A DNA stretch of 64,000 bases from Pseudomonadota bacterium (GCA_043821645.1 JBDRCO010000113.1:1-64000), one strand, 5' to 3'. Shown: positions 1-64,000, counted from the stretch's first letter. Notes: a model not told the origin generated them from the letters alone. Program-made: numbers and translations.

Positions 1-160
1 GCACGCGCTGAACCAGGCGAACGCCGTAGGGTCCGCGATCGCCGTAGGTCGCCGGGGCCAGGGCATCGGGTTCAAGCAGGATCTCGCCGGGCTCCGTGCA
101 GGCCCCGACGAGCACAGTGAGGACGAGGAGCCACACGCATCCCCGTGGCTTGCTGATCAT
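1..160 (-). CDS. Partial lipoprotein (N-terminus only; gene continues past the left window edge), possibly an alpha/beta hydrolase
   Basis: ATG at 160 overlaps the ABC stop (ATGA). Reads MISKPRGCVWLLVLTVLVGAC (lipobox) ...GPYGV. Not in the ORF track. Confidence 0.6.
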   Translation of the reverse strand, partial: MISKPRGCVWLLVLTVLVGACTEPGEILLEPDALAPATYGDRGPYGVRLVQRV

Positions 161-2025: not shown

Positions 2026-3821
2026 GTGCCCCCCCCGACGACCTCGAGTTCGCGCTCGGCGGTCTGCTGGCGCCACAGGTCGGCATAGCTCCCCTGGCGT
2101 GCCACCAGCTCGTCGTGGCTGCCCTGCTCGATCACGCGCCCTTGGTCGAGGACCACGATCTGGTCGGCGTCCCGCACGGCGGACAGGCGGTGTGACACGA
2201 TCACCGTGGTCTGCTGGCGGGCGACCTGTCGCAGATCTTGCAGGATCGCGGCCTCGGTCTCGGCATCCACGGCGGACAGGCTGTCGTCGAGGATGAGCAG
2301 GCGCGGTTCCGCGAGGAGGGCCCGGGCAAGGGTCGTGCGCTGGCGCTGACCACCGGAGAGGGTGACGCCGCGCTCACCCACCAGGGTCTCCAGGCCCGCA
2401 GGCAAGGCCTGGAGATCAGCCCGCAGACGAACCAGATCCACGGCGTGCTGCAGCGCATCGTCCGGGGCATCGGGACGGGCAAAACGAATGTTGGCCGCGA
2501 GGCTATCGGAGAACAGAAAGGCGTCCTGGTCCGCGTAACCCACGGCGCGGCGCAGGGTGGCCAGGCGCAACTTCGTGGCGTCGAGCCCATCCACGAAGAG
2601 CTGTCCGGATGGAATCTCGACCAGCCGCAGCAAGGCCCTGACCAGGGTGCTCTTGCCGCTTCCCGTCTTGCCCACGACGCCGAGCACGCCTCCCGCCGGA
2701 ACCTCGAAGCGAATGTCCCGCAGCACGGGTTCGTCGCTGCCAGCGTACGCCACGGTCAGGCCTCGTGCCGACAGGCCTCCGCGGATCTCATGTTCGATCG
2801 CGTCGTCGTCGTCGCGAATGGTCGGCACCTGGGAGAAGACCTCGTTGATGCGCTCCATGCTGGCCAGGCCGCGCTGCCACATGCCCGCGACCCAGCCTAT
2901 GGCGATGGTGGGCCAGGCCAGGGCAGCCAGGCGAGCATTGAACTCGACGAACTCTCCCAGACTCAAGGCCCCGTCCATCACGCGCAGGCCGCCATAGCCG
3001 AGGACGGCGAGGGTGCCGATGCCGAAGAGGACACCGGCCATGGGCCACAGAATGTTGCGCACCCAGACCAGGCGCACGCTGGCGTCGTAGTAGTGCTGAT
3101 TGAATGCGTTGAAGGCCTCGATCTCGGCCTGCTCACGTCCGAACGATCGCACCACACCAATACCTGCCAGGTTCTCGGTGATGCGCGAGGACAGGTCACC
3201 GAGGGCCTTCTGCAGCTCCTGCGAGCGCAGGAAGATGGCGCGTGCGCCCCAGCGCGTGAGCAGGGTGAGGGCGGGCACCGTGGCCAGGGTGACGAGGGCC
3301 AGGGGAAGATCGAGGATGAACAGCAGGGGAATGTTGCCCAGGAAGACGAGCACGGTGTTGACGATGGTCAGCACACCGAAGCCGAGAAGGGCACGCACGT
3401 TGGACAGGTCGTTGGTGGCGCGGCTCACCAGATCGCCGACGGCGCTGGCCCTGAAGTACGAGGGCGGCTGCAGGCAGAGGTGGTCGAACAGCTCGGTGCG
3501 GATGTCGTGCTCGGCGGAGCGCCCGGCGTAGAAGAGGAATCCCCGGGATGCGATGCGCACCAGGGCTGCGGCGAGGGCCACGGCAGCGATGAGCCAGGCG
3601 GTGCCGGCGACCACCGAGGCCGGGTACCCCTGGCGCACCTGATCGATGGCGCGGCCCAGCAGCGAGGGCAGGAACAGGGCGAGCAGGTTGGTGGCGAGCA
3701 GCGTCAGCAATCCAAGACCGGTGTAGCCCCTGTAGCGCCACACATAGTCGCGAATGCGGCGTGGGCCGGCCGGTGACGACGGAAGTTTGACCGGTCCGGG
3801 AGCCTGTGGCGTCGTGGGCAT
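2022..3821 (-). CDS. ABC exporter, fused permease/ATPase, subunit A of a heterodimer (MdlA-like)
   Basis: Walker A GKTGSGKS, signature LSGGQRQ, Walker B LLILDDS, VSHRL. Start is 3821 or 3833. Confidence 0.92.
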   Translation of the reverse strand: MPTTPQAPGPVKLPSSPAGPRRIRDYVWRYRGYTGLGLLTLLATNLLALFLPSLLGRAIDQVRQGYPASVVAGTAWLIAAVALAAALVRIASRGFLFYAGRSAEHDIRTELFDHLCLQPPSYFRASAVGDLVSRATNDLSNVRALLGFGVLTIVNTVLVFLGNIPLLFILDLPLALVTLATVPALTLLTRWGARAIFLRSQELQKALGDLSSRITENLAGIGVVRSFGREQAEIEAFNAFNQHYYDASVRLVWVRNILWPMAGVLFGIGTLAVLGYGGLRVMDGALSLGEFVEFNARLAALAWPTIAIGWVAGMWQRGLASMERINEVFSQVPTIRDDDDAIEHEIRGGLSARGLTVAYAGSDEPVLRDIRFEVPAGGVLGVVGKTGSGKSTLVRALLRLVEIPSGQLFVDGLDATKLRLATLRRAVGYADQDAFLFSDSLAANIRFARPDAPDDALQHAVDLVRLRADLQALPAGLETLVGERGVTLSGGQRQRTTLARALLAEPRLLILDDSLSAVDAETEAAILQDLRQVARQQTTVIVSHRLSAVRDADQIVVLDQGRVIEQGSHDELVARQGSYADLWRQQTAERELEVVGGGT

Positions 3822-3922
3822 GAGCGGTCGCATCTTGTCAGCGTGGCCGAGCCACGGCAAGGTGGTCTGTCCGTGACGATATAGCGGTGCGCCCGGGCGG
3901 CGCACAGAGCGGAAGTGGAAGC

Positions 3923-4231
3923 ATGATCCTCGCCGAGTTCAGCATCGCACCCCTGGACGCCGGAGAGAGCCTGAGCGAGCAGGTGGCCGAGGCACTGGAC
4001 ATCGTGGACCGCAGCGGCGTGGCTTATCGCTTGAACCCCATGGGCACCGTGCTCGAGGGCGAGTGGTCCGAGGTGTTCGGGATCATCGAGCGCTGCTATC
4101 AGGCCATGCGTCAGCACAGCCGTCGTGTCTCCATCGCGATCAAGGTTGACGCCCGGGAGGGCGCAAGTGGTCGCCTGGACGCCAAGGTGGCAGCCGTGGA
4201 GCAGCGACTCGGCCGGGTGCTGAACAAGTAG
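3923..4231 (+). CDS. MTH1187/YqgV family thiamine-binding protein
   Basis: MILAEFSIAP...LNPMGTVLEGEW...RVSIAIKVDAR pattern, about 100 aa. Confidence 0.85.
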   Translation: MILAEFSIAPLDAGESLSEQVAEALDIVDRSGVAYRLNPMGTVLEGEWSEVFGIIERCYQAMRQHSRRVSIAIKVDAREGASGRLDAKVAAVEQRLGRVLNK

Positions 4232-4260
4232 GACAGTGAACGACGACCCAAGGAGCCCAC

Positions 4261-6354
4261 GTGGGATGGCTACCTTACGTCTACCAGTACGGCATAGGCG
4301 GACTACTGCTGCTGGTGGGACTGCTGTACGCCTGGCGACAGGGCGATGTGGGCCTGCGCGGCCGCGGCCTGCGAAATCTTGTGCTGGTTCTCGGCGGTCT
4401 CGCCTTCTTCATGCTGCTGCAGGGCTACTTGCAGTTCGTGGCGACGCGCGATCCGGAGCTGCCGCGCGGGCCGGCGGGTCCGGCCTGGACCGAGCACGGC
4501 GTGCTGGGCGCTCCCGTCGACTATGCCCTGATCGTACTGTACTTCATCGTCATCCTGGGTTTTGGCTCGCTGTTCGGACGCCACACCCGCACAACCCGCG
4601 ACTTCTTCTTTGGAGGGCAGCGGTTTTCCTGGTGGCTCATCGCCATGTCGCTGGTGGCCACCACCGTCGGCTCCTACAGCTTCATCAAGTACTCGCGCGT
4701 CGGTTTCGAGCACGGTTTCTCGTCGACACAGTCCTACCTCAACGACTGGTTCTGGGTGCCGCTGTTCCTGTTCGGCTGGCTGCCCATCATCTACTACTCG
4801 CGGGTGCGCTCGATCCCTGAGTACTTCGAGCGCCGCTTTGGCAGGGGTGCCCGTCACGTCGTCACCGCCCTGCTGCTGATCTACATGATTGGGTACATCG
4901 GCGTGAACTTCTACACCCTGGGCAAGGCCATGCACGGCCTGCTGGGCTGGGACGTGTTTTGGAGTGCCGCCCTGGTGGCCATGGTCTGTGCCATCTACGT
5001 CACTGCCGGAGGCCAGACCGCGGTCATCATGACGGACCTGGTGCAGGGGGTGCTGCTGCTGGTGGCCGGCGGCGTGCTGCTCTACCTGGGCATCGACAAC
5101 CTGGGAGGCTTTGACCAGTTCTGGGGCCACCTGCGCCCCGATCAGCGGGCAGCTTTTAGCAACTTCAACCAGGATCCCAAGTTCAACATGGTCGGCATCT
5201 TTTGGCAGGACGCCATCGCCAACAGTGCGACCTTCATCTTCTTGAACCAGGGCCTGATCATGCGCTTCCTCGCGGTCAAGAGTGTGCCCGAGGCACGCAA
5301 GGCGCTGGTCGTCACCATGATCGTGCTCATGCCCCTGGCGGCCATCGTGGTCGCGGGCGGCGGCTGGGTGGGCTCGGCCATGGTGCACGCCGGTCTGCTC
5401 GACCCGGCCACACCTCCAGACACCATCTTCGTGCGGGTGTCGTACGTGCTATGTCGGCCGGGCGTGTTCGGGCTGGTCATGGCGGCCCTGACCGCGGCTC
5501 TGATGTCGACAGCGGATACGTTGATCAACGCTGTGAGCGCGATCGTGGTCAACGACATCGTGCGTCCGTTCACGGCGGAGCGCCTGGACGATCAGGCCTA
5601 CCTGCGGGTGGCGCGCTGGACCTCGGTGGGGGTGTCCCTGGTGGGCCTGGCCCTGGTTCCCTTCTTCATGCAGTTCGACTCCATCTACGCGGCCCACGGA
5701 GCGTTCACCGCTGCGGTCACACCGCCCATGGTGGTGGCGGTGATCCTGGGCGTGTTCTGGCGCCGCTACACCGGCACGGCAGCACTGTGGACCATGGCAG
5801 GCGGCGCCGCCCTGATCGCGCTGTCCTTCGTCGTACCCGACGTCATCGCTCCCTTTGCCCACGGTATCCCGCGCGGTGGCGAGTACCACACAGCCTGGGT
5901 GTTCCCGCGGGCCCTGTACGGACTGGTGGTGTCGACACTGCTCGGGGTGGTCGCCACCGCGTTCACGCAGCCCGAGGCTGGACGCGACCTGGGCGGGCTG
6001 GTCTGGGGTTCCATTGGCCAGGCCATGCAGCGATTCAAGGGGAGCACGGGTCGGGAGCGAAGCGCACGCGGTCGCCTGGTGTCGGCCAGAGGCGGTCTGC
6101 CCCTGCAGCTCGCCGGTCCCATGGATCTTCCGCTGTGCCGGCTCACCGCCGCGCTCATGCAGAGTCTCGAGGTGGCCGAGGGCGATCTTGTCTACGTTGC
6201 GGACAGGCGGCGCTGGCTCGGCGGCCTGCGCTCGGCGCACATGGTGGTGGGGCCTGTCGTCGAGGGGGAGGGTGAGCTTGTGCTGCTCCCCGATGCCATC
6301 CACGCCGAAGTCGGCGCGAAGAGCGGTCGCGCCCGGATCGAGGCCATCCTGTGA
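4261..6354 (+). CDS. Sodium:solute symporter (SSS) with an extra N-terminal 2-TM module and a C-terminal soluble tail
   Basis: DFFFGGQRFSWW, SIPEYFERRFG, GGQTAVIMTDLVQ, AALMSTAD motifs; AGGAG RBS before GTG. Confidence 0.9.
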   Translation: MGWLPYVYQYGIGGLLLLVGLLYAWRQGDVGLRGRGLRNLVLVLGGLAFFMLLQGYLQFVATRDPELPRGPAGPAWTEHGVLGAPVDYALIVLYFIVILGFGSLFGRHTRTTRDFFFGGQRFSWWLIAMSLVATTVGSYSFIKYSRVGFEHGFSSTQSYLNDWFWVPLFLFGWLPIIYYSRVRSIPEYFERRFGRGARHVVTALLLIYMIGYIGVNFYTLGKAMHGLLGWDVFWSAALVAMVCAIYVTAGGQTAVIMTDLVQGVLLLVAGGVLLYLGIDNLGGFDQFWGHLRPDQRAAFSNFNQDPKFNMVGIFWQDAIANSATFIFLNQGLIMRFLAVKSVPEARKALVVTMIVLMPLAAIVVAGGGWVGSAMVHAGLLDPATPPDTIFVRVSYVLCRPGVFGLVMAALTAALMSTADTLINAVSAIVVNDIVRPFTAERLDDQAYLRVARWTSVGVSLVGLALVPFFMQFDSIYAAHGAFTAAVTPPMVVAVILGVFWRRYTGTAALWTMAGGAALIALSFVVPDVIAPFAHGIPRGGEYHTAWVFPRALYGLVVSTLLGVVATAFTQPEAGRDLGGLVWGSIGQAMQRFKGSTGRERSARGRLVSARGGLPLQLAGPMDLPLCRLTAALMQSLEVAEGDLVYVADRRRWLGGLRSAHMVVGPVVEGEGELVLLPDAIHAEVGAKSGRARIEAIL

Positions 6355-28264: not shown

Positions 28265-28726
28265 TTAGCGCTTGAGCACCGTACGCAGCGTGGCCACATC
28301 ATCGGTGGCACCTCGCAGGCGCCGGGTGAGCAGGCCCGCGATGGCCTCGAAGAAGGCTGCTCGCAGCTCGGCGTCGGCGTCGAGGACGGGACGCAGCTTG
28401 TCGTGCTCGAGCAGGATGACCTCGGCGCGCTCGATGACCTCGACCGAGGTCGAGCGCGGTTCACCGTCAACGAACGCCATCTCGCCCAGAGTGGTACCCG
28501 CGCCGAGCAGCGCGACCTCCTCGACCGAGCCTCCGGGCTGACCTTTGAGCACCTTCACGGAGCCGCTGCCAAGAAGGTAGATGTTGCGATTGGCGGTGCC
28601 CTGCTTCACCAGATCTTGCCCCGGTGTGTAGGTGCGTTCGATGGCCGTACCGGCGAGCTTTTCCAGCAGGTGCGCAGGCATGTTCCGGAACAGTCGGCTT
28701 GCCTTGAGAACCTCGATCGGCTTCAT
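28265..28726 (-). CDS. Stand-alone cyclic-nucleotide-binding domain protein
   Basis: GEMAFVDGEPRSTSV phosphate-binding cassette; no HTH. Confidence 0.88.
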   Translation of the reverse strand: MKPIEVLKASRLFRNMPAHLLEKLAGTAIERTYTPGQDLVKQGTANRNIYLLGSGSVKVLKGQPGGSVEEVALLGAGTTLGEMAFVDGEPRSTSVEVIERAEVILLEHDKLRPVLDADAELRAAFFEAIAGLLTRRLRGATDDVATLRTVLKR

Positions 28727-29976
28727 GCGGATTCTCCTGCACCGGTCTCGTCGTGCGAGGCCAGCGTGTGGACGATGGCGTCGACCAGGAGCCTCGCCAC
28801 GTCGTGCTTGGAAACGGGTCCGAACTCCCTGGCGGTACCATCGCCGAAAATGATCGCTCCACGGCTGGTGTCGACGTCGAAGCCGCTATCCGCGCTACCC
28901 ACCAGGTTGGCGACCAGCAGGTCTGCCCCCTTGCGAGCGCGCTTGGCCTGTCCACGCGCGGTGACGTCCTGGGTCTCGGCGGCAAAACCAACCACCACAC
29001 GTGCCGGGCGCCGGGCGCACAGCTCCGCCAGGATGTCGGGGGTGCGCACCAGCTCGATGCGCTCGAGGGGTTGTTCCTGCTTGGACAGCTTGTGGTCCGC
29101 GACCTGGGCCGGCGCATAGTCCGCCACCGCCGCGGCCATGATCACGACGTCTGCGCCCCTGGCAGCATCGAAGGTCGCGGCATGCATCTGCTCGGCGGTC
29201 TCGACCGATACGGCCTGCAGTTGCTGCGGAATGGCAACGGTGAGCGGCCCGTGGACGAGCACCACCCTGGCGCCGCGTCGAGCGGCTTCGAGAGCCACAG
29301 CCACACCCATGCGGCCGGACGAACGATTGCTGAGAAAACGGACCGGGTCCACGGGTTCGCGAGTCGGCCCGGCGGTGATGACAACACGGCGTCCCTCGAG
29401 ATCCCGGCCCCTGGCTAGAATCTCCGACACGGCCTCCACGATGGCTTCGGGTTCCGCCATGCGTCCGTCGCCACTTGCCCCGCTGGCCAGGCTGCCACGC
29501 GCGGGTCCCACGGTGTAGATGCCACGCGCCAGCAGGCCGCGGAGGTTGGCCTGGGTCGCGTCGTGCCACCACATGTGGTGTTCCATGGCCGGCGCGATCA
29601 GCACCGGTGCCCGGGTCGCGAGGAGGATGGCGGCCAGGGGATCGTCGGCTCGCCCGTGGACAGTGCGTGCCATGAAATCCGCTGTCGCCGGTGCGACCAC
29701 GACGAGGTCCAGGTCCCGAGCCAGCTCGACATGACCGATGGGCGAGCGACCGTCCGCAGAGGGCTGAAGAGCCAGGACATCGAGGAGCACCGGGAGTCCC
29801 GACAGAGCTTCGAAACTGAGTGGACCCACGAAGGCGGTGGCGGCCCGGGTCATGGCCACGCGCACGACCGCGCCATGCTCCCGCAGACGACGCAGAACCT
29901 CGACGGCCTTGTAGGCCGCGATGCCACCCGTCACGCCCAGCAAGATACGCTTGCCCTGGAGCTCGCCACTGCACAT
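28723..29976 (-). CDS. coaBC: Phosphopantothenoylcysteine decarboxylase/synthase
   Basis: GVTGGIAAYK, APATAD, APAM, TAGPTREPVDPVRFLSNRSSGRMG, GFAAET. Confidence 0.96.
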   Translation of the reverse strand: MCSGELQGKRILLGVTGGIAAYKAVEVLRRLREHGAVVRVAMTRAATAFVGPLSFEALSGLPVLLDVLALQPSADGRSPIGHVELARDLDLVVVAPATADFMARTVHGRADDPLAAILLATRAPVLIAPAMEHHMWWHDATQANLRGLLARGIYTVGPARGSLASGASGDGRMAEPEAIVEAVSEILARGRDLEGRRVVITAGPTREPVDPVRFLSNRSSGRMGVAVALEAARRGARVVLVHGPLTVAIPQQLQAVSVETAEQMHAATFDAARGADVVIMAAAVADYAPAQVADHKLSKQEQPLERIELVRTPDILAELCARRPARVVVGFAAETQDVTARGQAKRARKGADLLVANLVGSADSGFDVDTSRGAIIFGDGTAREFGPVSKHDVARLLVDAIVHTLASHDETGAGESA

Positions 29977-39352: not shown

Positions 39353-40135
39353 ATGAACGCACCAACCAAGAGCTCTGCGTTCCACGAGGTCCTGGCCCAG
39401 CGTCAGTTCAAGATCGTGTACCAACCCGTCGTCGATTTGAACAACGGACGCATCTTCTCTTACGAGGCCCTGCTGCGCAGCACCAACCCGGCGTTTTCGA
39501 GCCCGCCAGAGCTGCTCAACGCCGCGGTGGCGCAGAACGCCATGGGCCACTTCGGCCGCCTGATCCGCGAGAAGACCATCACCGATGCACCCGAGGCCAC
39601 GCTGTTCATCAACGTTCACCCTGCAGAGCTGGGAGATAGCTGGCTGGTGCGCCCGGATGACCCCATCTTCGAGCATCCCGACGGCGTGTACCTCGAGATC
39701 ACCGAGTCCGTGCCGCTGACACACTTTGACCTCTGCCACAGCATCCTCGCCGAGGTGCGCGCGCGCGGGGTCAAGCTCGCCGTCGACGACCTGGGCTCGG
39801 GCTATTCCAACCTCAAGTACATCGCCGACCTCGCCCCGGAGGTCGTCAAGATCGATCGCGACCTCATCGCCAACCTACACACCTCCAAGCGTCAGCAGAT
39901 CCTGGTCGCCGCCATCGTTCGCCTGTGCAGTGACCTCGGTGCCACGGTGGTGGCCGAGGGTATCGAGACCACGGACGAGTTCAAGGCCGCCCAGGACACG
40001 GGCGCACAGTTCGGACAGGGTTACCTGCTGGCCCGCCCCGAGTTCCCGCCGCCCCTGGTACCCTGGCCTCCCAAGAACGGCACCGCCCCGAGCTCTGCAA
40101 GCAACCCTCCCGCGTTCTCGAAATCTGCACTATAA
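39353..40135 (+). CDS. Stand-alone EAL c-di-GMP phosphodiesterase
   Basis: [31 protein letters not shown]. Confidence 0.9.
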
Positions 40136-40181
40136 CGGGCGCGTGTTGCGGGCACTGGACGCTCGCCACGACGAGGTCACC

Positions 40182-42328
<2,147 letters not shown>

Positions 42329-42332
<4 letters not shown>

Positions 42333-43315
42333 GCAGCGACGAGCTGATCCAGGGTGTGCGCGCGGGCGACCGGCGCTGGCTGGCCAAGGCGATCACCCTG
42401 GTCGAGAGCGCGCGTCCCGAGCACCAGACCCAGGCCGCCGCCCTGCTCGACGGTATCCTCGACACCCCACGTCGCGCCGTGCGCCTGGGTGTGAGCGGTG
42501 CGCCCGGGGCCGGCAAAAGCAGCCTCATAGAATGCCTGGGCATGCAGCTGGTGGAGAGCGGGACCCGCGTGGCCGTGCTGGCCGTGGATCCGTCGAGCCA
42601 GGTGAGCGGCGGCAGCATTCTCGGCGACAAGACCCGGATGGAGCGGCTCGGAGTTCACCCCATGGCATTCATCCGCCCCAGCCCTGCGCGGGGAAGCCTG
42701 GGTGGCGTCGCCACACACACCCGCGAGGCCATGCTGCTGTGCGAGGCCGCCGGGTATGACGTGGTGGTGGTCGAGACCGTGGGAGTGGGTCAGTCCGAGG
42801 CCACGGTGGCTGACCTCGTCGACTTCTGCGCGGTGCTGATTCCTCCCGGTGCCGGTGACGCCCTGCAGGGGATGAAGCGCGGTCTCATCGAGCTGGCCGA
42901 CGCCCTCCTGATCAACAAGGTTGACGTCGACAGCGAGGCGGCCGCACGAACCGCGCGCGACTATTCCCAGGCCCTCGAACTGCTGGGCGTCAAGGACGAC
43001 GGATGGGCCCCCCAGGTGTTGCAGATCTCGGCGCACACCGGTCAGGGCGTCGACACGCTGTGGCAGCAGGTGCAGGCGCAACGCCATGTGCTCGGTGCTG
43101 ACGGCCTCGAGCAGCGGCGTCTCAGGCAGGCGGTCCGCTGGTTCCATGCCCAGCTCGAGCAGGGTCTGTGGCGGGCCTTGCGTGGCGATCCCACCCTGCA
43201 TGCCGAGCTTCGTGCCCTGGAACAGGCTGTTCTGCAAGGTCAGATGCACCCGGACCGGGCGGCCCGCAAGCTCATCGCCCACATGCTCGCGCCACGACAC
43301 GAACCGGCCGGGTGA
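42329..43315 (+). CDS. meaB: Methylmalonyl-CoA mutase-associated GTPase
   Basis: [42 protein letters not shown] overlap with scpA. Confidence 0.96.
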
Positions 43316-54512: not shown

Positions 54513-56321
<1,809 letters not shown>

Positions 56322-56378
56322 GAGCGTTCTCCGTCGAGAAGAGAAGGCGAGCACGCTAGCAGCGTGGCCTCTGGCGGG

Positions 56379-57719
56379 TCAAGATGACGCTCCTCGCCGT
56401 CGGGACGGAGCGTCGCGAAAGGCGCTGGGACGCAGGTCCCAGGGCAGCAGACGGAGCACGATGGGCAGCAGCAAGGCCCCGCCGGGGAGTGCAAACAGGG
56501 CCAAGGACGGGACCGCGCGGACGATATCCAGCAACTGCTCCCGCACGCGGGCGCGCTCGCTGTCGTCCAGGCTGTGCCCGCCAGCAGCCCGGGTCAGCAA
56601 GGTCGCAAGCTCCCCGGTCTGGCGGATCTCCGTGACCAGGGCGTCGAGGTTGCGCTGAACCAGGCCCACCACTCGCTTCTGAACCAGGCCACCAAGCCGG
56701 CCGTAATACTGCGTCTCGGTGAACAGATCGAACAGGTCGCGGTGCGCTTCAACGAAGCGCCGCACGCGGACCTCGATACGGCGGAGCTGCAGATCCGGGA
56801 CCTCGAGCTGGGCGGCCAGCTGATCGACGAAGCGACGCTCGTCACGATCGATGTGGCCATCGATGACCGCGGCCAGGAGCACCTGTTCGAGCAGGTAGCC
56901 CACGGAGCGTCGACCCTCGACCATGTCCGCGACCTGTGATGCCGTCAGAGGCTGCTCGAGCAAGCGCTTCAACGCGCGCACCTGGCCACGTGAGAAACCG
57001 CAGCCACCGAGCTGACCGGCAGCCATGCGCCTGGCTTCGGGAGGCAGTCCCTGCCCTCCCGCCACCAGGGCACCCAGGGAGGCCACCAGCATGTAGCGTT
57101 CGCGCTGAAAGAAAGCCCTCAGCTTGCTCAACACCTCGAGATCGACACCGCCACTTGCAGCCACCGCCAGCGTGATGCGCCCGACCAGGCGCGCGTCGCT
57201 GTAAAGCAAGCCGTTGCGCAGGGGCAAGCCGAGCAGAGGGTTGCCCACGGCGTACTGGCGCGCTGCCAGCATACTCTCGAGGGTGGAGCGGATGCGGGTG
57301 AGCTGGCGCCGCGTCAAGGAATGTCCCTGGCAAACCTGGAACAGCTGCACGGCCATCGCGTCCTGCTCGACCAGCAGTGCCAGGCAGCACAGCAACCAGG
57401 CCTCAACCTGCTCGGTGCGCACGCGACTGGACGAGACAGCCTCGATCTCGATGATGAGGTCGCACCAGATCGCCAGGAAGGGCTCGAAGGCTTCTTTCCA
57501 GGCTCCGGACTCCACCGCGTTGAGGAGTTCAGGGCGGGCCAGGGGCAGCCCGTAGGCCACGCCACGGCGATGCAGGCTCCAGAAGATCCAGCGCTTGGCA
57601 GCCCCCTTGCGGTCCGTCGTCCAGGGTCGCAGGATGCGCCCTACCCTCCACTCGACGGCGGCAACGTCGTGCGCACCAACATAGCGCTGGAGGAATCTCT
57701 CGAGCCATCCGCGCTGCAT
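56379..57719 (-). CDS. TerB-like / LETM1-related protein
   Basis: IDGHIDRDERRF (TerB-like); EQLLDIVRAVPSLALFALPGG.LLLP...PSAF (LETM1-like C-terminus). Confidence 0.65.
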   Translation of the reverse strand: MQRGWLERFLQRYVGAHDVAAVEWRVGRILRPWTTDRKGAAKRWIFWSLHRRGVAYGLPLARPELLNAVESGAWKEAFEPFLAIWCDLIIEIEAVSSSRVRTEQVEAWLLCCLALLVEQDAMAVQLFQVCQGHSLTRRQLTRIRSTLESMLAARQYAVGNPLLGLPLRNGLLYSDARLVGRITLAVAASGGVDLEVLSKLRAFFQRERYMLVASLGALVAGGQGLPPEARRMAAGQLGGCGFSRGQVRALKRLLEQPLTASQVADMVEGRRSVGYLLEQVLLAAVIDGHIDRDERRFVDQLAAQLEVPDLQLRRIEVRVRRFVEAHRDLFDLFTETQYYGRLGGLVQKRVVGLVQRNLDALVTEIRQTGELATLLTRAAGGHSLDDSERARVREQLLDIVRAVPSLALFALPGGALLLPIVLRLLPWDLRPSAFRDAPSRRRGASS

Positions 57720-57943
57720 CGTCGAGCGCCTCGCTTAAGGGAACCGGTCGTGCCACCCGCAGCCCGTCGAACAGGGTCCCGGCGACAGAGACCGCAGGAA
57801 GCAGGGCTCGGCGCGGTGGCACGCCCACGTCGAGCGGCCACCTCCGAACCTCGCGACCATAGCGCAGCCGGTCAAAGTCGGCGAGTCACATCGCAGCCCA
57901 GCAGGTGCTTGACCAGCCACGAGGCAGGGCGAAAGATGACGCG

Positions 57944-59779
57944 ATGACAGGACGGTCACTCGTCATGCGCCTGGCGCTGACCGCGGGAGCGGTGATCCTG
58001 CTCCTGCTGGTGCTGGCTGCCATCGTGCTGTGGCCCCTGCAGCGGCGCGCCGTGGAACCCATGGTGCGGGCGCACCTCCGGACCCTGACCGACAGAGTTG
58101 CGGCAAGCTACGACAGCTTCGACGAGGCCTCCCGTCTGCACCCCGTGGGCGACCTTCTCCTCGACGTGACCAGGCTGGACTTCGTGGTCGGTGCTCTGAT
58201 CCAGACTGCCAGCGGCACCGCGTCGCACCGCAGCGGCGAGATCCCTGCCGAGGGGAAGCGCTGGATCCATCTGCAACGTCCCTTGCCTCGCCGCGCCGGC
58301 TGCGCCCGTTGCCACCGCGAGCCCATCGAGTCGCTGGGCAGTGTGTTGCTGGTCGGGGACCTGGAGCGCGCCGCGGCACCCGTGCTCGACGCGCACCGGG
58401 TCTCGATGCTGGTCCTCGCCTTCGTGGTCCTGGGCGCGCTGCTCATCGTGGCCGTGGCGGCGCGACGTCTGATCACGCGACCGCTGTTACAGCTGGTTGA
58501 CACCATGAGCCGGGCCAAGGAGGGCGACTTCCTGGTGCGAGCCCCGACCGATCGTGACGACGAGATCGGGCACGTCGCCCGGACCTTCAACACCATGCTC
58601 GCCGCGATCACCGATCTGCAAGCCTCGCGCATCGAGCAGGCCCAGGACCTGGCCGTCGCCCAGCATGAACTCGCACTTCGCCAGCAGCTCGAGGAACGCA
58701 ATCGGGTCATCGCCGAGACCAACGCCAGCCTGCAGCGCAAGGTGGACGAGCTGACCCTGCTCACGGATCTGACCCGGGCCGTGACCTCGACCCTGGAGCT
58801 GAAAGCCGTACTAGATGAGGTGTGCCGGCGCGCCGGGACCTTCATGGGTGTCGACGAGGCCGTGGCATTGCTCAACGAAGATCAGCGGCAACGCGTGCGC
58901 GTGATCTCGATGCACGGGGTCCCTGCCTCGGTGGACCTGCGGGACCTGACCTTCAAGCACGGCGACGGAATCACCGGCCGTGTGGCTCTCTCCGGACGCA
59001 CCATCCTGGTCAGGGATACCACCGCGGACCCGCGCTACTTGCACTACAAGGGGCAGCGTCCCGTCGACGGGTCCTTCCTCTCCGTGCCCATGCTGGCCAA
59101 GGGCCGGGTGCTCGGAGTGCTCGACTTCTTCCGGGCTCAGGTCGACGCCTTTGATGAACGATCCATCACCTTGCTCACCGCGGTGGCCGGCCAGGCCGCC
59201 CTCGCGGTGGAAAACGCTCGGCTGTACCAGATGCAGACTGAGCTGGCCCTGACCGATGCCCTGACCAGCCTGCACAACAGGCGGGCGCTGGATCAGCGCC
59301 TCGAAGACGAGGTGCACCGCGCGTCGCGCTTTGGCAATGCCCTGTCCGCCCTGATGATCGACGTCGATCACTTCAAGGATTTCAATGACCAGCACGGGCA
59401 TCTGGTGGGTGACCTCGTGCTGCGCCAGGTGGCGCGCGTGCTGCGACGGCAAGTGCGGAAGGTCGACACCATTGCGCGCTTCGGCGGCGAGGAATTCTGC
59501 GTGCTGCTGGTGCGGACCCCGCTGGCTGATGCCCTCGACGTGGCCGAGAAGCTTCGCCAGACCGTCGCCGACAGGCGTTTCTCCAGGCTTCGCCGGGACG
59601 CCAAGCTCCAGGTCACGGTCAGCATTGGTGTGGCCGAACTCGGCGCCGAGATGAGAGGCCCCCAGGAACTCCTGGATGCGGCCGACGGCGCGCTCTATGA
59701 CGCCAAGCACGGCGGACGCAACCGCGTCTGCGTGTGGCAGGGTGCGGCCGGTGCCTCGACGACGATTCCCCAGAAGTGA
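57944..59779 (+). CDS. Membrane diguanylate cyclase (periplasmic CxxCH, HAMP, GAF, GGEEF)
   Basis: CARCH between TM segments; HAMP; GAF; DVDHFK.FND.HGH, RKVD I-site, GGEEF. Confidence 0.92.
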   Translation: MTGRSLVMRLALTAGAVILLLLVLAAIVLWPLQRRAVEPMVRAHLRTLTDRVAASYDSFDEASRLHPVGDLLLDVTRLDFVVGALIQTASGTASHRSGEIPAEGKRWIHLQRPLPRRAGCARCHREPIESLGSVLLVGDLERAAAPVLDAHRVSMLVLAFVVLGALLIVAVAARRLITRPLLQLVDTMSRAKEGDFLVRAPTDRDDEIGHVARTFNTMLAAITDLQASRIEQAQDLAVAQHELALRQQLEERNRVIAETNASLQRKVDELTLLTDLTRAVTSTLELKAVLDEVCRRAGTFMGVDEAVALLNEDQRQRVRVISMHGVPASVDLRDLTFKHGDGITGRVALSGRTILVRDTTADPRYLHYKGQRPVDGSFLSVPMLAKGRVLGVLDFFRAQVDAFDERSITLLTAVAGQAALAVENARLYQMQTELALTDALTSLHNRRALDQRLEDEVHRASRFGNALSALMIDVDHFKDFNDQHGHLVGDLVLRQVARVLRRQVRKVDTIARFGGEEFCVLLVRTPLADALDVAEKLRQTVADRRFSRLRRDAKLQVTVSIGVAELGAEMRGPQELLDAADGALYDAKHGGRNRVCVWQGAAGASTTIPQK

Positions 59780-59787
59780 CGGGATGC

Positions 59788-60756
59788 TCAGGATGTGGTG
59801 GCCGCGTCCGTCCCGCGACGGAAGGAGTCCGGCACACACAGAACCTGCTGACTCCTGAGCACGCGGACCGCCTGTCCGCAGTTGCTCCCGATCTGGTCCT
59901 CGCGAGGGTCTCCGACGCTGAGGATCACGTCAAAGCCGCCCGCCCGCAGGCGCTGCACCGCCACATCGACCTGGTCCCGTGCCCCAGCTCGCAGCACCGT
60001 GTGCAGCGCATGCGCATCGCCGCGGGCCGTCGGGTTGAGCGGTGTGAGCTTGATCGTGAAGAGGAGGGGATCGAAGCGGCACAGCAGGACCGCGGGATCG
60101 AAGGGCACACCCTCGGCGAGGGCAAAGTTGAGCACGACGCGACGATCCCCCGCCACGACGAAGCGCTCGCCGTAGTCCGCGATGGCGTCGGGACCCCAGT
60201 GCGGCACCGGGATGAGTTGACGTCGCAGCGCGTCATCGGTGGTGTTGAGCGAGAACTGGAGCTGGAAACGCCCGCGGTACAACGCCCGCTTGACGTCGAG
60301 AAGTGCATCGAAGAAGCGCTCCTGCCCTCGCGGAGCCACGGTCGCCAGGCAGGCCCACAGGCCCGGGCTTTGCACCACCTGCGGCAGCTGCCACAGGGCC
60401 TCGATGACGGCGTCGTTGTAGGCCGGCTCCCCCATGCGCGCGAAGTGGATTTTGAGCTTGCGACAGCTCGCCGCCTGGTCCGGGTGCTGCGACAGCACCC
60501 AGCGCACCTGGGCCAGCAGCTCGGCTGCACTGAGGTGACCCTGAAAGTCGCCACCCGCGTCGCAGTAAGGGCAGCCGACGGGGCAGCCGATCTGGGTCGA
60601 GATGTTGACGATCCACTTGTCGAGCCGAGGCCGTGGCGGATCGAGTCCATCCACCATCTCGACGAGCAGGCGCGGGTCCTGGCGTAACCTGGCCACATGC
60701 ACCACCGCGACCTCGGGCATCCCGTGGCTGCCCACCACCTCGAGGAGCTCACTCAT
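59788..60756 (-). CDS. RlmN/Cfr-related radical SAM protein (atypical)
   Basis: STQIGCPVGCPYC, RMGEP, SNCGQ. Confidence 0.85.
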   Translation of the reverse strand: MSELLEVVGSHGMPEVAVVHVARLRQDPRLLVEMVDGLDPPRPRLDKWIVNISTQIGCPVGCPYCDAGGDFQGHLSAAELLAQVRWVLSQHPDQAASCRKLKIHFARMGEPAYNDAVIEALWQLPQVVQSPGLWACLATVAPRGQERFFDALLDVKRALYRGRFQLQFSLNTTDDALRRQLIPVPHWGPDAIADYGERFVVAGDRRVVLNFALAEGVPFDPAVLLCRFDPLLFTIKLTPLNPTARGDAHALHTVLRAGARDQVDVAVQRLRAGGFDVILSVGDPREDQIGSNCGQAVRVLRSQQVLCVPDSFRRGTDAATTS

Positions 60757-61667
60757 GCGCGCCCACCTCCTCCGATCCGTGTCGCAAGATAACCGTGTGC
60801 CAGGCAGGCGGCGTGCACACCATCGCCGAGAGCGGGTGCGATGTAGCGCTGGCTGTCCCGGGTCAGGTCACCGGCAAGATACAGCCCAGGCACGGGCTGC
60901 AGACGCTGCAGAGGTCGATCCCCGGGCAGCCCTAGCCCCCGCAGCAGCTGGGTCTCGGGTTCGCGCCCGATGCAGGCGACGACGTGGGCGACTTCGACCT
61001 GTGTGCGGGGCGCGGCCTCCCCACCAAGAATGGCAAGCAGGCCCTCGCGGGTGGGCTCGCAGCGGCGGGCGGTCAGCCCCGGCCAGATCTCGACGCCAGA
61101 CGCCCGTGCTTCATGCAGCAGGGCTGGACGAGCGCGGAATCGGTCCCCTCGCAGCGCGACAGCCACGCGAGCGCCTCGGTCCGCCAGGGACAGCGCCGTA
61201 TCCAGGGCGACCTCGCCACCTCCGAGCACCAGGATCCGCTTGCCTTCCGGGAGATCCAGCAAGGTGCGCAGATCGCGGTGTGCGAGCCCGCGTTCGGTGC
61301 AACGATCCCAGCCCTCGACGTCGACAGTCCGTGGTCGAGTGCCACTGGCCAGCACCACGGCGTGAGCGACGATGGTGCCGTGATCCTGCTCGGCAACGAA
61401 CTCCTGGTCGCGGCGCGTGAGGGAGCGGACACGGCCCGCGATGGACGTGATGCCAGCCTGCCCGAGCTGTGTCTGCAGCCGCTGCCCCAGACCGATGCCA
61501 CTGATACGAGGCAAGCCCGGAAGGTTGTCGATGCGCCTGGCCGCCCGGGCAAGTCCTCCCGCGGGTTCATCCGCGACCAGGGTGATCTCGATTCCGAGGG
61601 CCGCGGCCTGTAGTGCCGCCGCCACGCCCGCGGGTCCCGCGCCGATGACGAGCAGGGCGGTTCGCAT
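60753..61667 (-). CDS. NAD(P)/FAD-dependent oxidoreductase, TrxR fold without CxxC
   Basis: IGAGPAG, NLPG, LASG, GGGEVALD, GLYLAGD; ATG at 61667. Confidence 0.85.
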   Translation of the reverse strand: MRTALLVIGAGPAGVAAALQAAALGIEITLVADEPAGGLARAARRIDNLPGLPRISGIGLGQRLQTQLGQAGITSIAGRVRSLTRRDQEFVAEQDHGTIVAHAVVLASGTRPRTVDVEGWDRCTERGLAHRDLRTLLDLPEGKRILVLGGGEVALDTALSLADRGARVAVALRGDRFRARPALLHEARASGVEIWPGLTARRCEPTREGLLAILGGEAAPRTQVEVAHVVACIGREPETQLLRGLGLPGDRPLQRLQPVPGLYLAGDLTRDSQRYIAPALGDGVHAACLAHGYLATRIGGGGRA

Positions 61668-62323
61668 CAGTGCTGCCACCCCCAGGCGTCGAGGATCTCG
61701 TCGACGGTGGCGACGTGCGCGTGCCCAGCTGCCAGCGTCTGCAGCGCGGCCAGGTGCTGCTGCGCGCTGCGGGCTGCGGTGGCGTCGATGCTGACCACGG
61801 GGACCAGGCCGACCTGTGAGGCGTCCAGGGCACTGGCGGCGATGCACAGAGGAGTCTGCACGCCCGCGAGCACTAGCGCATCGCAGCCGTCGAGGAGCGC
61901 GGGCAGTTCGGCGGCGCTGAAGATGCTGTGTCGGCACTTGTCGACGACGGGGCCTGTGGACCAGAGATCCTCGAGCGCCGGATCCAGGGCAGCCAGGACC
62001 TCACCCGCGCGAGGCAAGCGGTCGAAGAAGCGCCCCATCAGACCCCCCACGTCGTCGTCGGGATGCACGTGGCGCGTGAAGATCACTGGACACGTGGCCC
62101 TGCGAAAAGCCGCGACCAGAGCCCGCAGCGGCAGGACACAGGCAGGCCAGTCCGGCAGGGCGGCAGGACTCGCGGGGTCGCAAAACAAGCGCTGCAGGTC
62201 CACCACCACGAGCGCGGGCCGATGCAGATCGTCAAAAGTTCGGCGTCCCCGCAGTGGTGCCAGCGCATGCAGGACCCCGGATATCCCGGCGGCGGCATGC
62301 ATCGGACGGACCCCATCCGTCAC
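61667..62323 (-). CDS. Isochorismatase-family cysteine hydrolase
   Basis: VVDLQ (Asp), VDKCRHS (Lys), GVQTPLC (Cys) triad. Confidence 0.88.
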   Translation of the reverse strand: MTDGVRPMHAAAGISGVLHALAPLRGRRTFDDLHRPALVVVDLQRLFCDPASPAALPDWPACVLPLRALVAAFRRATCPVIFTRHVHPDDDVGGLMGRFFDRLPRAGEVLAALDPALEDLWSTGPVVDKCRHSIFSAAELPALLDGCDALVLAGVQTPLCIAASALDASQVGLVPVVSIDATAARSAQQHLAALQTLAAGHAHVATVDEILDAWGWQH

Positions 62324-63417
62324 CGCACACCTCCTGTGGTCGTGGGGACGCGAATGCTCCGGCCGTCGACGGCACGCAAGGTCCAGGCATCCTCATCGCG
62401 CGCGATCACACGTCCGGGGTGCAGGCGCACCTTGCCTCCGGCCTCGGGGAGGTCGACCACCAGATCGGGCAAGGCCAACCCAGATACGCGGTCACGCAGT
62501 GTCTCGATGAGCGCCATGGCGCGCTCGAGCGGCACCCGGACATGTGCGCTGCCGCTCACCAGATCACACTGGTGCAGGTAATAGGGGACCACGCGCTGCT
62601 GCAACAGGGCTCTAAAAAGGTTCTCAAGGACCTGGGCGTCGTCGTTGATCCCGCGCAGCAGCACGGTCTGGCTCAGTACAGGCACTCCGGCGTTCACCAA
62701 TCGACCCAGAGCGCCCGCCACCTCCGCATCCAGTTCCACAGCATGGTTGATATGCACGAGCACAAACAGAGGCTGCGCCCGCCTGAGCACACCGACCAGA
62801 CGCGCCGTGATACGCCTCGGCACGAACACCGGCAGCCGCGTGCCGAGCCGGATCACCTCGACGTGACGCAGGGTCCGCAGCTCTCGCAGCAGCAGCTCGA
62901 GACGACGGTCGTCGAGCATGAGCGGATCGCCCCCGGACAGGATGACCTCCCGGATCTCATCGTGGGCATGCAGGTACTCGAGGGCCGCATCGAGACGGGG
63001 TGGCGGCGTACCCGCCAGCCGCGCACGCGTGCAGAAACGGCAATAGGCCGCACACGTGCCGGTGACGAGGAGCAGGGCCCGATCAGGATAGCGGTGCACC
63101 AGCCCGGGCACGGGCATGTGCTGCAGCTCGGCCAGGGGATCCCCGTGCTCCCCTTCTGCCACCGCGAGTTCCGCCATGCGCGGGATGAGCTGCCGGCGCA
63201 GGGGATGGTCGCGATCGGCCCGGGGCAGGTGGCGCAGCACATGGGGGGTCAGCGCCAGCGCGCGGGCTCCATGCAAGCTCCGTATCGCCGCGCGCTCGTC
63301 ATCATCGAGATCGAGGTGCCGCTCCAGACCCGCCAGGTCGGTGACCACGCGGGCGAGTTCCCGCTGCCAGGGGGACGGAGGGGTGCGGCGATGACTCCGG
63401 CGAAGGGCGCTGTGCAC
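62320..63417 (-). CDS. KamA-family radical SAM amino-acid 2,3-aminomutase
   Basis: HRYPDRAL, CAAYCRFC, SGGDPL, QTVLLRGIND, PYYLHQCD, GGK (PLP Lys). Confidence 0.9.
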   Translation of the reverse strand: MHSALRRSHRRTPPSPWQRELARVVTDLAGLERHLDLDDDERAAIRSLHGARALALTPHVLRHLPRADRDHPLRRQLIPRMAELAVAEGEHGDPLAELQHMPVPGLVHRYPDRALLLVTGTCAAYCRFCTRARLAGTPPPRLDAALEYLHAHDEIREVILSGGDPLMLDDRRLELLLRELRTLRHVEVIRLGTRLPVFVPRRITARLVGVLRRAQPLFVLVHINHAVELDAEVAGALGRLVNAGVPVLSQTVLLRGINDDAQVLENLFRALLQQRVVPYYLHQCDLVSGSAHVRVPLERAMALIETLRDRVSGLALPDLVVDLPEAGGKVRLHPGRVIARDEDAWTLRAVDGRSIRVPTTTGGVR

Positions 63418-63702
63418 GTTGAGCCTCGCGCGGGGCCTGAGGCCCCATCGACAGCCCCCTGAAGACGGCGATGCCCCGGCAGCAGAGACCAGCCGGGTAG
63501 CGCCATGTTCGAATCACCCGCCGGAACCCTCGATTTTCCTGCGCGGGACGCGGCTGTACCATCAATCCTCGCGCAGAGGAACAGCTTATGCCCGGGCGGG
63601 GAGAGACCTCCACCTTCGAATGGGAGAGCGGTGTGGGAACGCGCACTGCGATGAGGACGCGGAGCTCGGGTCAGCGGAGAGAAGCGGCGATTCGCGGTTG
63701 GC

Positions 63703-64000
63703 TCACGGAGTGAAGGTCTGACAGCTTGCCTTGTTGCCGTCCCCTGCGGTGATGGTGACGGCGTACTCGGTGCCGACCTCCAGGGTCTTGGCCACACCCT
63801 CGGCCTCCAGTGCCCCGGTGGGCACGGTGCCGTAGGTCACCGGTGACGGGAAGGGAGATCCCGACATGCTCAGGGTCCACTGCCGCTCGGTGGTCTCGGG
63901 GAACTTGGTCACGGCCAGGCCTGCGGCATCGCCATCCCAGGAGATCTCGGGTGTGATACCCGAACCCACGGTGACCGCAAAATCACCTTCGCACCCCGTG
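63703..64000 (-). CDS. Partial small lipoprotein (start lies beyond the window)
   Basis: Frame open to the window edge: ...TGCEGDFAVTVGSG... Confidence 0.55.
   Translation of the reverse strand, partial: TGCEGDFAVTVGSGITPEISWDGDAAGLAVTKFPETTERQWTLSMSGSPFPSPVTYGTVPTGALEAEGVAKTLEVGTEYAVTITAGDGNKASCQTFTP

Follow-up and report, generated by a model that had tools for sequence, protein, structure and literature searches.

We analyzed a stretch of 64,000 nucleotides from a Pseudomonadota bacterium (GCA_043821645.1, JBDRCO010000113.1:1-64000), hereafter called the window, which is part of a 215-kb contig in a genome of 7.07 Mb (140 contigs, 94.7% complete). Counted from the first letter of the window, four genes fill positions 59788-63417, all on the minus strand. 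In the direction of transcription they encode a KamA-like aminomutase, a hydrolase of the isochorismatase fold (Iso), a flavoprotein of the thioredoxin reductase (TrxR) fold, and a radical S-adenosylmethionine (SAM) enzyme resembling RlmN and Cfr. The last three genes, hereafter the cassette, constitute a real orphan enzyme module; the four-gene arrangement with two radical SAM enzymes is specific to this genome. The features of the locus were as follows:

62320-63417, minus strand: gene for the KamA-like aminomutase (365 aa, GTG start); first gene of the operon, lineage-specific
61667-62323, minus strand: gene for the isochorismatase-fold Cys-amidohydrolase Iso (218 aa, GTG start); first gene of the cassette
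60753-61667, minus strand: gene for the TrxR-fold flavoprotein binding flavin adenine dinucleotide (FAD) and NAD(P)H, without redox disulfide (304 aa from ATG); second gene of the cassette
59788-60756, minus strand: gene for the minimal RlmN/Cfr-fold radical SAM enzyme (322 aa, ATG start); third gene of the cassette
62330-62335, minus strand: AGGAGG Shine-Dalgarno sequence within the 3′ end of the KamA gene, 6 nt ahead of the Iso GTG (read directly)
60766-60773, minus strand: GGAGGAGG Shine-Dalgarno sequence, 9 nt ahead of the ATG of the RlmN-like gene (read directly)
63418-63702, minus strand: intergenic region of 285 nt located 5′ of the KamA gene, the presumed promoter/leader of the operon

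The genes were joined by overlapping stop and start codons, i.e. GTGA between the KamA and Iso genes (62320-62323), TGATG between the Iso and flavoprotein genes (61665-61669), and ATGA between the flavoprotein and RlmN-like genes (60753-60756). A preliminary description of this DNA had reported a coupled four-gene operon; its four minus-strand open reading frames (ORFs) and all three junctions were recovered exactly as described. The longest ORF of the flavoprotein gene extends to 61937, which is an over-extension, and the ATG start gives the protein of 304 aa. Also, the family assignments made in that description proved correct: the KamA-family model TIGR00238 matched with 297 bits (cut-off 199), PF00857 matched Iso with 103 bits (cut-off 27), and Pyr_redox_2 matched the flavoprotein with 106 bits. 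Matches of the fourth protein to RlmN/Cfr models were weak, the best being NF011034 with 63 bits (E = 1.6e-17) against a cut-off of 422. In operons of high GC content, start and stop codons often overlap; therefore, the overlaps are evidence of co-transcription, not of a shared pathway. The locus is a single operon composed of two parts with different histories, the conserved trio and the lineage-specific KamA gene.

A promoter scan of positions 59500-63900 gave no sigma-70-like promoter. No terminator was detected between the genes of the operon, and the two terminator-like sites (0.9 expected by chance) were both intragenic. No Rfam element or riboswitch matched at E ≤ 1 across positions 56000-64000 of the window. 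Likewise, no Rfam element was located 5′ of the cassette in ten other loci, where the sole match was a thiamine pyrophosphate (TPP) riboswitch about 2.6 kb downstream of a fused gene (locus L074). At the 3′ flank of the operon, a convergent GGDEF/GAF/HAMP gene ends 8 nt from the stop codon of the RlmN-like gene. Composition gave no usable sign of a foreign origin, as the GC content at third codon positions (GC3) of 0.74-0.80 in the first three genes was too close to that of the neighbouring genes (0.84-0.85). A defence function was rejected, with no PADLOC family matching any of the four proteins. Long antisense ORFs were noted on the plus strand over the KamA gene (62254-63462) and over the flavoprotein gene (60984-61613). 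These ORFs, whose GC3 was as high as that of real genes, merely result from the GC content of 67%, and they misled a simple GC3-based gene caller.

Conservation of the three-gene cassette

Using an alignment of 21 sequences of the RlmN-like protein, we found relatives in 218 species-representative genomes, and the best 80 of the 218 loci were examined. Adjacency of the flavoprotein gene was scored by tblastn (E ≤ 1e-8) and, for divergent copies, by weaker blastp matches, cluster labels, or Pfam matches. A TrxR-like gene was detected by tblastn immediately upstream of the radical SAM gene in 54 of the 80 loci. Less than 900 bp of upstream DNA was available in 9 loci, leaving 71 with enough flank. 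Fifteen loci had room for the gene without giving a tblastn match; nine of them held a divergent flavoprotein copy (recognized by blastp or cluster labels, and by Pfam in locus L065). One archaeal locus carried the flavoprotein gene downstream of the radical SAM gene. In total, 64 of the 71 loci with sufficient flanking DNA had a gene for a flavoprotein without CxxC beside the radical SAM gene.

Iso was present in 40 of the 80 loci, 28 times upstream of the flavoprotein gene and 12 times just downstream of the radical SAM gene. Ten of these 12 downstream copies formed in-frame fusions with the radical SAM gene; that of locus L074, an ORF of 512 aa, was read directly. A profile search of 1.84 billion representative proteins yielded 137 matches at E ≤ 1e-30. 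Independent fusions found in the protein library joined the TrxR-like protein to the radical SAM enzyme (P0241, P0246, and P0256) or the radical SAM enzyme to Iso (P0264 and P0273).

The distribution of the cassette was patchy, covering Myxococcota, Elusimicrobiota, Aminicenantes, Acidobacteriota, Planctomycetota, and one metagenome-assembled genome of a Heimdallarchaeote; its hosts are mostly uncultured. Within a set of 61 genomes (the genome under study and 60 kin), 14 carried the RlmN-like gene, which was absent from all three closest kin. Among 81 sampled Elusimicrobiota genomes, the gene was found in three. Phage relatives were considered and rejected, as a scan of viral contigs with the family alignment gave none, and phage radical SAM clusters were listed as structural neighbours only.

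The arrangement in the window agrees with that of the other loci. Its three genes are adjacent and co-directional, and its radical SAM enzyme contains the motif SNCGQ and lacks the Cys that corresponds to C118 of RlmN. The trio very probably acts as a functional unit, of which KamA is not a conserved member. Weighing against this, 23 loci contained the flavoprotein gene with no Iso gene nearby. The preliminary description knew of no characterized pathway with this gene set, and neither a pathway nor a paper on it emerged from our search of the literature, in which subscription journals and supplements were covered to a limited extent.

Radical SAM enzyme, flavoprotein, and amidohydrolase

The RlmN-like protein fell far short of the cut-offs for RlmN and Cfr; in addition to the weak match to NF011034, the equivalog TIGR00048 scored 44.7 bits against a cut-off of 290. 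Its cluster motif comprises C58, C62, and C65. C293, located in SNCGQ, aligned with the methyl-carrying C355 of RlmN and was invariant in all 21 sequences. The column of the resolving C118 of RlmN was occupied by an invariant Asn (N51), seven residues before the cluster motif, and by Met in the fused form from Elusimicrobiota. The RNA-binding N-terminal domain was missing, as the match started at position 103 of the 355-position profile (residue 46 of the protein), with about 100 N-terminal residues of RlmN absent. An AlphaFold2 model of the enzyme reached a pLDDT of 91.7. The top Foldseek matches of this model were RlmN, the Sphaerobacter homologue 6fz6, and Cfr (E 3e-15 to 6e-9, TM 0.57-0.69); the next fold followed at 3e-7.

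In comparison with RlmN and Cfr (3rfa, 5hr7, 9p0p, and 6fz6), the cassette enzyme has in common (i) the fold; (ii) the CxxxCxxC motif; (iii) the beta extension preceding it; and (iv) the C-terminal CGQ Cys. It differs in having no RNA domain, an Asn in place of Cys118, the additional invariant residues C98 and C136, and a near-neutral isoelectric point (pI). Unlike RlmN and Cfr, it is accompanied by, or fused to, the flavoprotein and the amidohydrolase. A canonical RlmN (335 bits) is also present in the genome, together with two RlmN-type paralogs. These paralogs (contig C118, 48826-49704, and contig C106, 28505-29407) scored 244 and 212 bits, below the cut-off, with matches starting at profile position 52 and both catalytic Cys retained. 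All three RlmN-type proteins kept the Cys corresponding to C118 and had pI values of 8.3-9.9, as opposed to a median of 6.26 for the cassette family.

Three defining characters of the RlmN/Cfr family are missing, namely an equivalog score over the cut-off, a resolving Cys, and an RNA-binding domain; the cassette enzyme should not be filed as RlmN. Together, the lack of the RNA-binding domain and of the resolving Cys, and a protein that is not basic, suggest that its substrate is probably something other than RNA. The retained methyl-carrying Cys is consistent with the Cys-methyl chemistry of RlmN and Cfr to which the preliminary description had referred, and methyl transfer may tentatively be named as the reaction. 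The absent resolving Cys weighs against it, because methyl transfer of the RlmN type cannot run unchanged without this residue.

A sister clade of the radical SAM family (matching the family profile at E of about 1e-34) carries a QueT-like membrane domain and a methylthioadenosine/S-adenosylhomocysteine (MTA/SAH) nucleosidase as fusion partners, which points to small, imported molecules. Three of its members from other organisms (P0360, P0369, and P0343; 586-820 aa) combine QueT-like membrane and RlmN-like radical SAM domains, and the MTA/SAH nucleosidase is also found in P0360 and P0369. These three proteins may be transporter-coupled salvage enzymes. In Clostridioides difficile, the genes for QueT, for a queuosine hydrolase, and for QueL, a radical SAM queuine lyase, directly follow one another (PMC11570991). 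We considered, on these grounds, that the cassette enzyme might be a lyase or another radical enzyme instead of a methylase, in which C293 would serve as a relay for hydrogen atoms, and that it might be kin to salvage enzymes of the queuine-lyase type. Both the missing resolving Cys and the domain fusions of the sister clade, read alongside the C. difficile gene order, fit such a function. However, fusion to an MTA/SAH nucleosidase would suit a methylase that consumes two SAM just as well, and the QueT match of the sister clade was weak (30-40 bits, around the cut-off). Overall, a lyase seems unlikely. None of the cluster members of the sister clade carried the name QueL.

The flavoprotein did not reach the cut-off of the TrxR equivalog TIGR01292 (124 bits against 343). 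Its best solved relatives were TrxRs (E = 1e-21), with which it has in common the fold of two Rossmann domains and the motifs for FAD and NAD(P)H; the TrxR CxxC is replaced, both Cys aligning to Arg. In the family (21 sequences), no Cys column was conserved, whereas the GxGxxG, GG, GxGxxA, and GD motifs for FAD and NAD(P)H were invariant, and a conserved H-x-D-x-R-x-L-P stretch took the place of CxxC. Ferredoxin-NADP+ reductases of the TrxR type are known that have no redox disulfide. On general features, to which this comparison was confined, the flavoprotein resembles them in its TrxR fold, its FAD/NAD(P)H motifs, and the lack of CxxC. The eukaryotic TYW1 provides a precedent for the joining of a flavin domain to a radical SAM enzyme (PMC8941971). 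Its flavin domain is flavodoxin-like, not of the TrxR fold, and its radical SAM family is unrelated to that of the cassette.

The fusions of the flavoprotein to the radical SAM enzyme suggest a dedicated reductase, as does locus L079, which has no flavoprotein gene and in which a gene for a 2×[4Fe-4S] ferredoxin adjoins the radical SAM gene. The electron donor postulated in the preliminary description is therefore plausible, judging from the sequence motifs and from the fused proteins P0241, P0246, and P0256. We estimate an even chance that the flavoprotein serves the radical SAM enzyme as its reductase. As a point on the other side, the H-x-D-x-R-x-L-P stretch could bind substrate, in which case the flavoprotein would be a catalyst and not a mere reductase.

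Iso reached only 10-50 bits with any NCBIfam equivalog. Its best solved relatives were the 'cysteine hydrolase' 3irv and N-carbamoylsarcosine amidohydrolase. In the triad Asp42-Lys129-Cys160, Cys160 occurred in every one of the 21 sequences of the alignment; for Asp42 and Lys129, the share was at least 85%. PF00857 and the Asp-Lys-Cys triad are common to Iso and the isochorismatase-like Cys hydrolases (N-carbamoylsarcosine amidase, nicotinamidase, and 3irv). A difference from these is that, in Elusimicrobiota, Iso homologs form fusions with the radical SAM enzyme.

Pantothenate genes and the KamA-like gene

Outside the trio, neighbouring genes were heterogeneous. One theme recurred, pantothenate and coenzyme A (CoA), with pan or coa genes in 10 of the 80 loci. 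In five loci from a single Elusimicrobiota clade, the cassette ends a DUF2520-PanB-PanC-CoaC-CoaB-CoaX-PanD operon. PanB was divergently adjacent in three Myxococcota loci, stood together with FolD and formate-tetrahydrofolate ligase (FTHFS) in one, and CoaBC lay downstream in one. Within Myxococcota, PanB lay near the radical SAM gene in four genomes, each of which had two PanB copies. Across the 61 genomes, two PanB copies were found in 6 of the 14 with the radical SAM gene and in none of the 47 without it. These six genomes belong to only two families (f4 and f17), and their second PanB lies apart from the cassette.

Several further observations concern these genes. The second PanB of the six kin (G005, G024, G026, G031, G038, and G051) was lower-scoring (348-355 bits). 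In three of the six, it is followed by the gene for an unannotated protein of about 420 aa; the neighbours of this copy were uninformative. In the Elusimicrobiota loci L073-L075 and L077, the operon (positions of about 20-6100) consists of a Memo/AMMECR1 fusion, DUF2520, PanB, PanC, CoaC, CoaB, CoaX, and PanD. The DUF2520 protein may be a ketopantoate reductase. A TonB-dependent receptor gene lies downstream, and BioY and a TPP riboswitch in L074, as well as BioD in the related L064, give this region the character of a 'vitamin' supercluster. The genome under study encodes PanB (contig C113, 200985-201773), PanC, CoaX, and CoaBC (28723-29976 of the window); PanD was found neither there nor in the three closest kin. 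A role of the cassette as substitute for PanD was rejected, as PanD occurs in 12 of the 14 genomes with the radical SAM gene (the genome under study was included in the comparison), and the genome under study and its three closest kin are without PanD regardless of the cassette.

Accordingly, the cassette might act in pantothenate/CoA or related 2-oxoacid metabolism, e.g. on pantoate, pantothenate, pantetheine, or an analogue. The recurrence of pan and coa genes and the restriction of PanB duplication to genomes with the radical SAM gene favour this idea. However, 70 of the 80 loci had no such neighbour, the duplication stems from two families of non-independent kin, and the genes clustered in the Elusimicrobiota region concern vitamins in general. 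We regard a role of this kind as a minor possibility and the link to PanB and CoA genes as a lead only.

The KamA-like protein passed only the broad cut-off of the KamA family. It stayed below those of the equivalogs AblA (TIGR03820, 321 of 525 bits), EpmB (TIGR03821, 279 of 369), and AblA_like_2 (319 of 396), as well as of the Glu- and Arg-mutase models. Alignment with lysine 2,3-aminomutase (2a5h) gave 277 bits over residues 17-352. The cluster motif CAAYCRFC aligned with C125, C129, and C132 of 2a5h, and the QCDL and VVD...GGK stretches aligned residue for residue. Thus, the CxxxCxxC motif, the pyridoxal phosphate (PLP) Lys in GGK, and both Asp aligned with the pair that binds lysine are kept; in 2a5h, we take this Lys to bind PLP and the two Asp to hold the epsilon-amino group of lysine. 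The Zn-site Cys268 and the C-terminal domain of 2a5h are not kept. In length (365 aa) and in the lack of a C-terminal domain, the protein resembles EpmB.

None of the 80 cassette loci contained KamA (best tblastn E-value 1.2). Conversely, no cassette gene was found in 99 KamA-bearing loci, which comprised 19 from kin genomes (flanks of about 1.5 kb) and 80 from metagenomes (up to 6 kb), the closest KamA relatives (P0122-P0127, 56-62% identity) lying outside this set. Hence, the cassette works without KamA everywhere else examined. The expectation that the genes co-occur in other genomes held for the Iso-flavoprotein-radical SAM trio and failed for KamA. A replacement of kamDE by the cassette was also considered and rejected, since comparison of the window with the KamA loci of four kin (G002, G003, G034, and G027) gave no synteny in the flanks, KamA being the sole match.

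A KamA-family gene was present in all 61 genomes, and the best kin relative of the KamA in the window was 52% identical to it. In a quick tree, it fell into a well-supported clade of eight rows together with the KamA of two genomes of the same class, in which the gene adjoins kamD of lysine 5,6-aminomutase. A search for kamD in the 94.7%-complete genome under study gave no match, and its positive control worked. The usual neighbours are efp and epmA for EpmB, kamDE in lysine fermentation, and ablB in the acetyl-beta-lysine pathway; here, the KamA gene adjoins the cassette instead. The preliminary description was right in that the usual partners are not adjacent. EpmA is encoded on contig C51 (311 bits, over the cut-off, as in 47 of the 61 genomes), and the two genes for elongation factor P (EF-P) are located on contigs C43 (9230-9778, with a Lys-type KPGKG loop) and C72 (75744-76301, with TPSARGAS at the same place); ablB was not part of the search.

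A second KamA paralog of the AblA type (493 bits) was found on contig C42 of the same genome (G000; locus L084, 4131-9578, minus strand). It appears to be part of an operon, behind a gene for a histone-deacetylase-type protein of 594 aa and ahead of two genes for D-Ala-D-Ala-ligase-like ATP-grasp proteins, which could be a pathway to a beta-lysine peptide or conjugate. Given the presence of EpmA and of a Lys-type EF-P, the role of EpmB should fall to one of the two KamA paralogs. In the quick tree, the KamA of the window grouped with the single-copy KamA of most kin, and the AblA-type copy did not. The KamA of the window may thus be the EpmB of this genome, a serious and ordinary reading. Three observations weigh against it: (i) the EpmB score remained below the cut-off; (ii) the branch of this KamA was long (1.33, median 0.31), which would fit a change of function; and (iii) one genome of the same family (82% complete) gave no ortholog.

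The overlap of the KamA stop with the Iso start and the strong Shine-Dalgarno sequence within KamA mean that co-expression with the cassette is built in, possibly owing to a genuine metabolic connection in this organism. In the preliminary description, all four genes had been taken as one self-contained pathway to a methylated or otherwise modified beta-amino acid derivative. In such a pathway, KamA would make beta-lysine or another beta-amino acid, and the cassette would methylate, reduce, and hydrolyze it or its amide. Tight translational coupling of the genes at each junction, together with the Shine-Dalgarno sequences, agrees with this proposal, as do the long branch of KamA, its lack of the kamD neighbour seen in relatives of the same class, and the amidase type of the hydrolase. 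However, the mutual absence of KamA and the cassette from each other's loci speaks against it, and nothing outside this genome supports such a product. We therefore consider a four-gene pathway rather doubtful. That KamA supplies EpmA for beta-lysylation of EF-P (the EpmB role) is somewhat more likely than that it feeds the cassette. The pairing of two radical SAM enzymes was seen nowhere but in this genome, and chance gene order may account for it. As a caution, the window illustrates that overlapping stop and start codons indicate an operon, not a pathway.

Elsewhere in the window, a gene for methylmalonyl-CoA mutase with its B12-binding domain is followed by that for its MeaB GTPase (39726-43315, plus strand). 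Several genes for Ser/Thr kinases were also noted, as is typical of Myxococcota, the phylum to which the genome belongs according to how its homologs are named.

Proposed working of the cassette and its significance

It is very unlikely that the RlmN-like enzyme is still a methyltransferase of rRNA or tRNA with a private reductase and an incidental hydrolase: RlmN, 6fz6, and Cfr are by far its closest folds and profiles, the methyl-carrying Cys is kept, and relatives have been annotated by JGI as 23S rRNA methyltransferase, but the RNA-binding domain is gone, an invariant Asn replaces the resolving Cys, the family pI is near neutral where the three true RlmN-type proteins of the genome are basic, ten loci have the amidohydrolase fused, and a transporter-like membrane domain is joined to the enzyme in the sister clade.

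Judged by the nearest known systems, the cassette works most like RlmN or Cfr with a built-in reductase. We infer its mechanism as a whole, and the order of flavoprotein, radical SAM enzyme, and amidohydrolase is its most likely working. In this scheme, NAD(P)H would reduce the FAD of the flavoprotein, from which electrons would pass to the [4Fe-4S] cluster of the radical SAM enzyme. There, C293 in the C-terminal loop would serve as a carrier of a methyl or methylene group, as in RlmN, or as a radical relay. The substrate would be a small molecule other than RNA, and the amidohydrolase would use this molecule as well, in the step directly preceding or following that of the radical SAM enzyme. 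A KamA-family gene joined the cassette only in the lineage studied here; it keeps the residues for the chemistry of lysine 2,3-aminomutase and would therefore make beta-lysine.

As far as we are aware, the class A radical SAM methyl synthases of known function are limited to RlmN and Cfr, each of which has RNA as its substrate. The boldest version of our proposal, which we offer as a long shot, is that the cassette represents the first class-A-type radical SAM enzyme (RlmN fold, Cys-methyl chemistry) for a small molecule, with its own NAD(P)H flavoprotein as the source of power and a tie to pantoate/pantothenate/CoA-type chemistry through the second PanB, and that the fast-evolving lysine aminomutase placed in front of it in this lineage leads to an undescribed C-methylated metabolite derived from beta-lysine.

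The cassette is set apart by the loss of the RNA domain and of the resolving Cys, by its private flavoprotein and frequent amidase, by occasional fusions, and by its occurrence in at least six phyla. If the proposed working is true, the cassette widens the chemistry of class A radical SAM enzymes and offers a test case for how electrons are supplied to radical SAM enzymes in vivo.

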